Assembly (NCBI GenBank): GCA_002753335.1
Contig: PEAD01000010.1
Span: 1-64,000, forward strand
Direction: 5' to 3'
DNA: 64,000 bases
Source: Nitrospirae bacterium MYbin3
GTDB taxonomy: Bacteria > Nitrospirota > Thermodesulfovibrionia > Thermodesulfovibrionales > Dissulfurispiraceae
Made by a program: the position numbers. This document shows positions 6,001-9,000 of the stretch, in pieces. Position 1 is the stretch's first letter; each line of letters begins with the position of its first letter.

Positions 6001-9000
6001 TCTCTTATCATTTTATCACAGTCTGATTAGAAGCCATAAAAAGACATTCTAGACGAGGTTAAAACAGCAATGACAGTTGTATCGGTTTGTAGCGTGCAAG
6101 GCAGAAAATATGGTAAAGTGAGATAGTCGGGTCGATCCCAGCTTCACTTTATTTTTCAAACCATAAAAGGAGATAAATAAGATTAAAAGCAAAGAATCCG
6201 CCATAGCGGCCGCAAAGGCATGCGGCGACAAGAAAGCAAAGGATATAGCCATATTAGAACTTAAAGACCTCACCGTAATAGCCGACTATTTCGTAATCTG
6301 TTCAGGTGAAAGCACAACCCAAGTTAAAGCTATAGCGCAGCACATCGAAAGAAAACTCAGAGACGAAGGCACACGTCCTCTGCGTACTGAAGGAGCTCAA
6401 AACGCGCTTTGGGTTCTGCTGGATTACGGCGATGTGATGGTGCATGTTTTTGAGGAACAGACACGGGCTTATTACGAACTCGAAAAATTCTGGCTTGATG
6501 CTCCAAGGATACAGGTTAATGATAAAGATACGCCTGCTCTGGGTAGGAAAGAATAAGGAGTCCTATCTTAATGATGGGATATCACATTATCTAAAGCTTC
6601 TGAAACCTATGGCCCAGTTCTCTATTGTCGAGATAAAAGAAGAAAAGGTCAAAACAGGAGATGCTGCCCTCGCGCTTGAAGCCAAGCGCATCTTTGACAA
6701 AACACAATCGTACATACTGCTAGATGAAAAGGGAAAAGAACACACTTCTGTCGGCCTTGCAGAATTTATAAAAGATAAATCAGCCCTGGATTTTGTGATC
6801 GGCGGCCCGTTCGGCGTATCGGAAGAGGTGAATGCAAAAGCTTCGCTTGTTCTGGCCCTTTCCCGAATGACGCTCACTCATGAAATGGCCCGGCTTATAT
6901 TCCTTGAACAGATTTACCGCGCGCTGACGATAACAAAAGGCAGGGGGTATCACCACTAATGGGCAAAATTGCGATACTTGTATTTCTTATCTTCCTCGGC
7001 ATTCTCGGGTTCTTTGCGGTTGAAAACAAAGATATAGTTACCGTAAAAGTGCCCTTCGGTGATGTTTATGAAATTCCTAAAATAGCGCTGATACTGCTCT
7101 CCTCCACCCTTGGGGCCCTTGCAATACTTCTCGTTTTCTTCGTCAGGGACACAAAGCGCGTAATAGACAATATGCAGCAGAGCAAAAGGCAGCGACGCGA
7201 AGAGAAGGTCAGGGAATACTACTCAAAAGCGCTGAACGCCATTTTAGGTGATAAAGAGGAAGACGCAATCGAATCGCTGAACGACATTTTGAAAGAGGAT
7301 CCGGAACACTTGGATGCACTGCTGCGATTAGGTGATATAGCTATGAGCAACGGCGATTTCAGCATGGCTCAGGTGCATTACAAGAAGGCTTATTCGATCA
7401 ATACGAAAGGGCTGCAGGCATTGCTGTCGCTTGAATCACTGATGGAAAAAATGGACAGGCATGAGGATGCACTGAGATATATCGATGACATACTTGAAAT
7501 AGATTCCGAAAACCTTACGGCGCTCTATCGCAAGCGCAGACTGCTCGAAAAAAGAGAGAAATGGGATGCGCTGCTTTCGCTGCAAAAATCGATTTTAAAA
7601 CTTGAACACAACGAAAACGACAAGAACCGCGAGGAGAAGAAGCTGCGCGGATACACCTATGAATACGGCCGTGCAAGCCTCGAAAACGGTGAGATGGAAA
7701 AGGCCGAAAAAGCCTTTAGAAGCATCATTAAAATGGATGAGAGCTTTGTGCCTGCCTACTTAGGCATTGCTGAAGTGCTGCACAACAAAGGAGAGACAGA
7801 GGATGCCATCAACCTCCTGGAAAAAATATTCGAACAGCTGAATTCTGTGATAATCCTTGCACGCCTTGAGGATATGCTTATCAGCGTTGGCGAACCGGGC
7901 CGACTTATCCGTTTTTACAAAAGCGCTATTTCTAAAAAACCGAACGACGCCGGACTGAAATTTCTTTTGGGCAAACTTTTCTTCAGACTCGAGATGGTCG
8001 AGGATGCGCTGAATACGCTGAACGAAGTTGATACGAGCCTGCTTTCAACAACCGAATTCTACAATCTGCGCGGAGAGCTTTACCTGAAGAGAAACCAGAT
8101 TCCGAAAGCGATAGAAGATTTAAGAAAAGCCTGCGAGTTCAAAAAGACTCTTCTCATACCTTACTGCTGCTCAAATTGCGGGTTCCGGTCGATTGACTGG
8201 GCGGGCAGATGTCCTAAATGCCTTAACTGGAACACATATAAACTCGATATCTATAGCACCTGCAAGCTCAAATAAAAAATGACCGCAAACCTTTATCAGC
8301 TATCCGCCCCTAAAAAGGTGGTGCTCGATACGAGCCTGTTCGTCAATCCCGATGTACGAGAAAATCTCGGGAAAACACCCACCGAAGCGCTCGAGACCTT
8401 TCTTGCTCTCGCAGCAAAAATAAAAATACTCGAATTTTATATGCCTCCGTCAATACTTGAAGAACTCTTAAACTTTGTTGATAAAGAAAAGATTACCGGC
8501 GAAATGCTATTGATGATCAACCAAAAGCCGCCCAAAAAGCATGAGCTGAAATGTCCCGGAATAGTGCTCTACGAACTGATCGAGGATATGAGAGAAAGGG
8601 TAAACAAAGGCTTGCGGGCTGCTGAAAAGGCTGTGCGCAGTGCAGCAGGAAAAGAGCCTGACGAAATAATTCAGGACTTGAGAAAAAAATACAGAGAGGC
8701 GCTCCGCGAAGGAATAATAGACAGCAAGGAGGATGTTGACCTGCTCCTTCTCGCACTAGAACTCGATGCAATACTGATCAGCGCGGACCAGGGGCTGATT
8801 AAATGGGCAGAAAAAATGGGCATCCAGTGGGTTCTGCCCGAACGCTTCAGGGATTATTTGATGGCTGCTGAAAAAAGCTCTCCTGATAATTAGGGTTCTG
8901 ATTCGGGGCAGCGCCATATATTTTTTATTGACAAAATATGTAACAAGTGTTACATTTGTATCAGGCATAACACTAAAGATAAAATTATGATAAAACAGAT

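Follow-up and report, generated by a model that had tools for sequence, protein, structure and literature searches.

Likely repeated loss of the ribozyme form of RNase P from a dual-enzyme ancestor in the Thermodesulfovibrionales

The window, a 64,000-nucleotide stretch of contig PEAD01000010.1 of Nitrospirae bacterium MYbin3 (genome G000; 93.7% complete, 66 contigs), carries an intact harp gene on the forward strand (8279..8893) that encodes a 204-residue protein-only RNase P of the PIN_5 family (HARP). Two genes on the same strand precede it. An rlmH-like gene for a SPOUT methyltransferase (6519..6959; PF02590, E 2e-42, start codon inferred) is overlapped at its stop by the ATG of a lapB-like gene (6959..8275), whose product combines TPR and rubredoxin-zinc parts, and the ATG of harp lies 3 nt after the lapB-like gene ends. 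We infer that the three form an operon with the rlmH-like gene first. Behind harp, the chromate transport genes chrB and chrA (8987..11302, forward strand) lie outside the RNase P system. They are likely a separate unit, since a sigma70-like promoter match precedes chrB (TTGACA-17-TACATT; 8928..8956, forward strand); it is a consensus match only, and four such matches were found where 4.3 are expected by chance. Only one of 67 harp loci, the one in G000, has chrB after harp, and chrBA occupies here the place that a convergent Rnl3 RNA ligase holds in many relatives.

The assignment of 8279..8893 to harp, made in an earlier note on this DNA, was confirmed by the profiles. The product matched PF08745 over its full length (E 1.3e-60, 204.8 bits against a cut-off of 27) and TIGR03875 (207.5 bits against 95.3), as well as seven solved RNA-free RNase P sequences, with PDB 7E8K as the best (E 4.8e-65). 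In a protein search the best 120 of 1606 matches were all close; the nearest named bins belong to Dissulfurispiraceae, Thermodesulfovibrionales and Nitrospirota, in keeping with the order given in the earlier note, and databases annotate these HARP genes as 'RNA ligase partner'. We then compared alignments with the residues named in PMC8266387 and PMC9051087. The catalytic aspartates D17, D148, D152 and D170 correspond to D7, D138, D142 and D160 of Aq880, and the functional arginines R105, R113, R120, R135, R139 and R143 to R108, R116, R123, R138, R142 and R146 of PbHARP. Across 67 aligned homologues (67 of the 68 loci), the four aspartates and five of the six arginines are invariant; R135 and R139, the equivalents of R125 and R129 in the basic spike helix of Aq880, are present in all 67.

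PbHARP, from a Planctomycetes bacterium (PDB 7E8K/7E8O; PMC9051087), is the nearest solved match, and all nine of its residues reported as required for cleavage are found in the G000 HARP; PbHARP itself is weakly active in vitro (PMC9051087). With Aq880 of the Aquificaceae (PDB 7F3E, 8KD9) the protein shares family, catalytic aspartates and spike-helix arginines. Aq880 without residues 184-191 is active and without residues 181-191 nearly inactive (PMC8266387). The G000 HARP runs 20 residues beyond a conserved tryptophan, and the shortest HARPs, those of family f10, run 13-15 residues beyond it and end at Aq880-equivalent positions 187-189. By sequence the G000 HARP belongs unambiguously to a known family and is ordinary within it; by analogy it is likely a Mg-dependent PIN nuclease that oligomerises. 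In the solved relatives' terms, the Arg-rich spike helices of one HARP dimer would grip the tRNA elbow while the aspartate site of a neighbouring dimer would cut at +1.

The earlier note had flagged Thermodesulfovibrio-like matches that end near a stop. These f10 proteins are not defective: they have no internal stops and intact short C-termini, and the Pfam model simply extends past the short C-terminus, so we rejected them as pseudogenes. Family f10 is a single genus with genomes of 1.5-2.0 Mb, and its HARPs (L156, L162-L165, L168-L171) form a long branch in the HARP tree. Their R-(I/T)-K-S-P motif resembles that of the 7F3E/8KD9 and 8KDA chains, and Q-K-(P/S)-P is what other members of the order have at this place; convergence or exchange may possibly account for this likeness. 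Second, weak PF08745 matches (19-25 bits, mostly in frames of 330-360 aa, including one in G032) were set aside as a different PIN protein by their length and coverage.

The genes of the RNA-based enzyme are missing from G000. Neither RF00010 (rnpB) nor PF00825 (RnpA) matched any of its contigs, and the same held for RNaseP-T and Rnl3 (TIGR01209). An order-specific rnpB profile found nothing (best E 3.8; a one-family control profile recovers 22 of 22 others), nor did an order-specific RnpA profile (best E 0.48). The sites themselves give the same answer. On contig C36, as the earlier note had held, rpmH (44629-44769) is separated by about 21 nt from yidD (44791-45000), which is followed by yidC (45021-46589), so that rnpA is cleanly gone; Aquificaceae show the same reduced order (PMC10941002). 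On contig C35, a Zn-ribbon gene ends at position 79519, exactly where the next ORF starts. This gene stands before rnpB in 23 of 30 rnpB loci of relatives and in three of four outgroups, and the ancestral rnpB site is thus closed, a result that goes beyond the earlier note. Both positional tests are independent of genome completeness. PRORP (PF16953) matched none of five genomes, and control genomes were likewise without a match. With the usual sites of rnpA and rnpB both empty, HARP is likely the only RNase P of G000 and the cutter of its tRNA 5' leaders. Such cutting is needed, since the tRNA genes are tightly clustered, which also rules out leaderless tRNA transcription. The initiator-type tRNA-Met of G000 (C59:45162-45238) has an A1:C72 mismatch at its start.

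To place G000 among its relatives, we surveyed 151 genomes of the order (at least 80% complete, no more than 15 per family besides G000, a sample that is not proportional to species). HARP, rpmH and yidD were scanned in all 151 and rnpB in 150, with G150, left out of the rnpB scan, being classed by its rpmH-yidD gap of 122 nt; G113 has no measurable gap. We found 90 HARP-only genomes, 44 with the RNA enzyme only (two of which, G048 and G120, were placed there solely by a gap of rnpA size), 14 with both, and three in which neither was seen. The dual genomes, with HARP and full rnpB, comprise 12 of 15 in f8, the one genome of f13, and G080 of f12, and RnpA ORFs are intact in all eight that were checked. 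Families f1, f3, f5, f6, f9, f10 and f11 uniformly lack rnpB; f8 and f12 are mixed.

These counts bear on the earlier picture of an order that is mostly HARP-only, with the two enzymes mutually exclusive by family. Its first half stands: most families are HARP-only, with rnpA cleanly gone. Family f1, reported as lacking rnpB and rnpA on a sample of 68, gave the same result in our sample of 16, with HARP in 16/16, rnpB over the cut-off in 0/16 and rpmH-yidD gaps of 14-56 nt throughout. Exclusivity does not stand, for HARP and full rnpB occur together in 14 of the 150 genomes in which both were sought, and three states coexist. A likely cause of the error shows in a phylum-wide draw that contained neither f12 nor f13 and represented f8 by G008 only, one of the three HARP-only members of that family. 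HARP occurred in 30 of the 141 genomes of that draw, and outside the order only in G246, a member of the same class without rnpB; families f16-f27 had none in 107 genomes. rnpB was present in four of five genomes checked outside the order. The RNase P RNAs are long in f8 (377-531 nt), f13 (495) and f2 (396-513) compared with the 363-434 nt of the fetched f4, f7 and f12 loci, possibly through helix expansions; length is unspecific as a mark of the dual state, since RNA-only f2 also reaches 396-513 nt.

The emptied sites recur across the order. The rpmH-yidD gap measured at least 313 nt in all 52 rnpB-positive genomes in which it could be measured, and 8-200 nt in all 88 measurable genomes with HARP and without rnpB. 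Since gap length follows rnpB presence, rnpA and rnpB track each other. Intact RnpA was found in 17 of 17 long gaps examined, eight of them from dual genomes, and 20 short gaps contained no RnpA relic at the protein level (best E 0.58); for gaps of 85-200 nt the DNA search likewise gave no relic (best E 0.11). At the rnpB site, ten of ten rnpB-negative genomes examined showed no match to RNase P RNA, and in five of them (G011, G246, G119, G032 and G005) the flanks lie 7-175 nt apart. In the near-complete HARP-only genomes G006, G023, G078, G117 and G065, no RF00010 score exceeded 15.4 bits, where the cut-off is 100. Weak matches of 10-15 bits (G006, G065, G023) were treated as noise, as rnpB-positive genomes yield matches of the same size, and a candidate rnpB relic in the 400-nt gap after rnhA of G021 gave no match; that gap contains a 92-codon ORF. 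In f11, harp (G011:C21, G024:C22, G058:C14, G099:C85) and yidD are on opposite strands, some 4.5-5 kb apart, which places harp near the emptied rnpA site.

It is scarcely credible that these absences are binning artefacts caused by RNA genes that often stay unassembled. G000 does lack several tRNAs, and G048 and G120 combine rnpA-sized gaps with no rnpB match, but the positional evidence comes from continuous contigs, and the absence of rnpB holds in one-contig genomes as well; for every genome whose sites were read, an artefact is thereby refuted.

One genome of f7, G032 (L322, L313, L342, L346), has both sites emptied, with 102 nt between rpmH and yidD and 175 nt between the Zn-ribbon gene and a LysR gene. 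Its harp site is filled as in the RNP-only G007. HARP and RNaseP-T were not found in it, and PRORP was likewise without a match, as in the control genomes. Since the bin is 90% complete and in 380 contigs, a regained harp that stayed unassembled is the likeliest explanation; otherwise G032 would represent a cell that lacks every known RNase P.

G032 could also be taken to mean that a hidden, divergent RNA enzyme or another nuclease performs the housekeeping cut, with HARP as an accessory as in archaea, where HARP knock-outs are reported to have no phenotype (PMC12153264). The tRNA leaders of f10 and G000, which remain rich in U at position -1, would fit such an arrangement. Yet both RNP genes are gone between intact flanks, the catalytic residues of HARP are invariant, and near-complete genomes have no RF00010 or RNaseP-T match. 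Of the 93 genomes that show no evidence of RNP, moreover, 90 have HARP, which is absent from 44 of the 58 with RNP. We therefore regard a hidden enzyme as very unlikely and HARP as the probable housekeeping RNase P of the HARP-only genomes. Against that role count the weak activity of PbHARP and a report that, among five HARPs of bacteria with both enzymes, four were not robustly active (PMC9945441).

The number of losses was counted on a tree, which the earlier note had not built. We used NusG, L11, L1, L10, L7/12, RpoB and RpoC (3,500 columns, all from one gene cluster), with FastTree on 79 genomes and a quick IQ-TREE run under LG+G4, without a mixture model, on 47 of those. Both concur on two main clades: clade A, ((f8,(f7,f4)),(f9,(f10,f1))), and clade B, which joins (f3,f5) with f11, (f13,f6) and (f2,f12). 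In three of the four genomes of genus g63 (f4) sampled, rpoB lies in a frame of 2713-2729 aa that represents an rpoB-rpoC fusion (G093:C95:22047-25934, G112:C34, G145:C57). HARP-only groups nest beside RNP-bearing sisters with SH-aLRT values of 98-100; the exact sister of f11 is weaker (80), with its parent clade at 100. Two sister pairs of a HARP-only and a dual genus lie within f8, g16 with g33 and g26 with g44 (100 each). The HARP-only family f6 has dual f13 as its sister (99), and HARP-only G119 is nested in f12 (100).

The earlier note had proposed one large HARP-only clade, which corresponds to a single loss of the RNA enzyme with the two enzymes exclusive by family. Seven families are indeed uniformly without rnpB, but AU tests, with groups set by enzyme state after the FastTree topology was known, rejected one clade of the seven HARP-only families (lnL -299.8, p 1.5e-75), the union of the four HARP-only families of clade B (p 1.8e-48) and that of the three HARP-only f8 genomes (p 8e-50). 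The 14 dual genomes and the mixed states of f8 and f12 speak against it too, and these bins are hardly chimeras, for their rnpB and RnpA group by family. A single loss thus has a negligible chance of being correct.

Counting losses only, the tree requires seven losses in lineages in which HARP is seen, plus G032 and G246 (nine in total); Fitch parsimony with regain allowed requires eight changes against these nine. Inheritance of the RNA enzyme looks vertical: rnpB and RnpA group by family, the RnpA tree splits like the species tree, and the position of rnpB behind the Zn-ribbon gene is shared with three of four outgroups. Regain of RNP is unlikely, because rnpA and rnpB occupy the ancestral positions and cluster according to family. 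It is therefore likely that rnpA and rnpB were lost independently at least seven times in the order, from an ancestor with both enzymes. The paired deletions would fall on f1+f9+f10, g16 of f8, g26 of f8, f3+f5, f11, f6, and G119 of f12.

The history of harp can be read from its neighbours. Of 67 loci, 61 have it next after the lapB-like gene, in nine families, both main clades and G246, and two more have it directly after rlmH. RNA-enzyme-only genomes retain the lapB-like gene but follow it with unrelated genes (5/5 checked). The lapB-like gene would thereby mark where harp was ancestrally inserted. Of the 151 genomes, 32 have Rnl3; 31 of these are HARP-positive, the other one (G067) having a fragment only, and the ligase usually stands tail-to-tail with harp. 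The HARP-Rnl3 pair has been described, with the order named, in PMC12153264. Many members carry this tail-to-tail ligase behind harp; G000 has no such convergent ligase, and f10 and f11 have none in 15 genomes each. The HARP-only state hence does not need Rnl3. An Rnl3 match in two pieces with a stop (G053:C10:6886-8074), far from harp, is likely a decaying copy.

In G080 and G119, the old harp site is filled by leuS as in the RNP-only G012, harp lies elsewhere, and the two HARP proteins are sisters, so that harp was likely regained in both. The HARP tree keeps most families intact but mixes f1 with f6, f9 and f12 and disagrees with the species tree at depth, from which we conclude that transfers or replacements of harp occurred; in f9, harp lies off the ancestral site. 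This discord, with the displaced harp genes of f9, G080 and G119, is what would be expected if the ancestor had the RNA enzyme only and harp spread late in numerous transfers, with rnpA and rnpB being lost after each. Loss would then still be repeated, with no long-lived dual ancestor. The lapB-like site in 61 of 67 loci, reaching both main clades and G246 outside the order, argues against late spread, as does f8, within which g16 and g33 are sisters in the HARP tree and the species tree alike. We consider late spread unlikely and favour ancestral insertion: harp, with a tail-to-tail Rnl3, would have been inserted behind the lapB-like gene before the order and G246 (f15) diverged. The dual state would have persisted, and f8 and f13 still show it. 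Other lineages (f4+f7, f2 and most of f12) would have dropped harp, with G080 and G119 likely regaining it at new sites.

The bases next to the cleavage site differ with enzyme state. HARPs favour A at position -1 and the RNA enzyme favours U (PMC12439589). In G000 the -1 position of 35 tRNAs is U in 21, A in 11 and C in 3, which is RNP-like and lacks the strong A(-1) enrichment of the Aquificaceae type. A G:C pair between -1 and 73, which in a HARP-only organism is expected nowhere except in tRNAs for His and Sec, was found in 0/35 in G000, the one genome measured. For the wider comparison we used a D-arm pattern that recovered 20 tRNAs and no false site in G000, and ran it over the 151 genomes with A, T or G/C at -1. 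Some tRNAs were counted twice through pattern overlap, and the leader control was A at position -10 only. A(-1) was found in 160 of 1005 pattern matches of RNA-only genomes (16%), 71 of 283 of dual genomes (25%) and 673 of 2070 of the 90 HARP-only genomes (33%). U(-1) amounted to 62.5%, 61% and 44%, and A(-10) to 35%, 28% and 32%, respectively. The A(-1)/A(-10) ratio is thus 0.45 for RNA-only genomes, 0.91 for dual ones and 1.03 for those with HARP only. Genomes that rely on the RNA enzyme alone are hence depleted in A(-1), and those with HARP have it at background level. U(-1) falls only in genomes without the RNA enzyme. The difference between 61% in dual and 44% in HARP-only genomes points to tRNA leaders changing after enzyme loss.

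Families vary, with A(-1) from 17 to 48%. It is enriched about 1.7-fold in f3 and f5. HARP-only f10 stays RNP-like (U(-1) 63%, A ratio 0.49), and RNA-only f4 shows merely mild depletion (A(-1) 28%). A/(A+U) was higher in the HARP-only member in five of six independent contrasts, which is not significant (one-sided sign test, about 0.11), and the f6/f13 contrast reverses after the -10 correction; genus-level p values for the leader shift ignore kinship and are overstated. The leader shift in HARP-only genomes is thus suggestive only. After loss of the RNA enzyme, the preference for U and against A at -1 likely relaxes, but A(-1) stays short of the full Aquifex signature.

That members of this phylum can be HARP-only has already been published, and the earlier note had called its finding partly anticipated in print. 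Daniels 2019 (PMC6380272) stated that a few genera of Aquificae and Nitrospirae encode HARP only, with RnpA alone as proxy, and Feyh 2021 (PMC8266387) likewise named HARP-only Nitrospirae. Lineage and state are as here; the portions of both papers available to us contain neither a tree nor a loss count, and no dual relatives or tRNA test appear there. Our literature search turned up no publication that counts the states order-wide, shows dual relatives or describes repeated loss, although Nickel 2017, Figure 1B and the genome list of Daniels, and the supplements of PMC12439589 may bear on the point. Aquificaceae alone count as verified HARP-only by extract activity (PMC12439589). They are described as one ancestral replacement, with A(-1) in 38 of 44 pre-tRNAs (86%) of Aquifex aeolicus against 15 of 49 in the dual Thermodesulfatator indicus (PMC12439589). 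In the present order, by contrast, the tree implies seven or more losses, sister lineages with both enzymes still exist, and A(-1) covers the lower range given above. T. indicus has been proposed as a model of the dual state before loss (PMC9945441), and f8 and f13 agree with it. Unlike T. indicus, the dual genera here are direct sisters of HARP-only ones (g33/g16, g44/g26, f13/f6), and paired comparisons are therefore possible.

Taken together, the evidence from genomes leads us to hold, with good confidence, that HARP would be the sole RNase P of G000, that the ancestor probably had both enzymes, that rnpA and rnpB would have been lost in pairs at least seven times, and that tRNA leaders would have relaxed in part. 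The novelty, by genomic inference throughout, lies in rnpA and rnpB having repeatedly been deleted together next to dual relatives that still live, accompanied by an incomplete shift of the leaders.

A practical consequence is that a missing rnpA in this lineage does not signal an incomplete bin. Why cells swap an ancient ribozyme for a protein is a question raised in PMC10941002, and it has so far been argued from one hyperthermophile family. Heat is unlikely to be the sole driver, because the close named relatives include groundwater and fen bins. The sister pairs g16/g33, g26/g44, f6/f13 and G119/f12 allow tests of HARP change and of the timing of the leader shift. More tentatively, and with slightly more doubt than belief, we suggest that the order may be a replicated natural experiment in ribozyme retirement, in which a long-lived dual state resolved to the protein at least seven times and to the RNA several times, with dual sisters still living, and in which each ribozyme loss would cause a later loss of the U(-1) bias. 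PMC12439589 leaves the order of tRNA change and enzyme swap both ways; if the suggestion is true, 'enzyme first, tRNA later' would be settled, and f10 would represent a HARP coping with U(-1) substrates.
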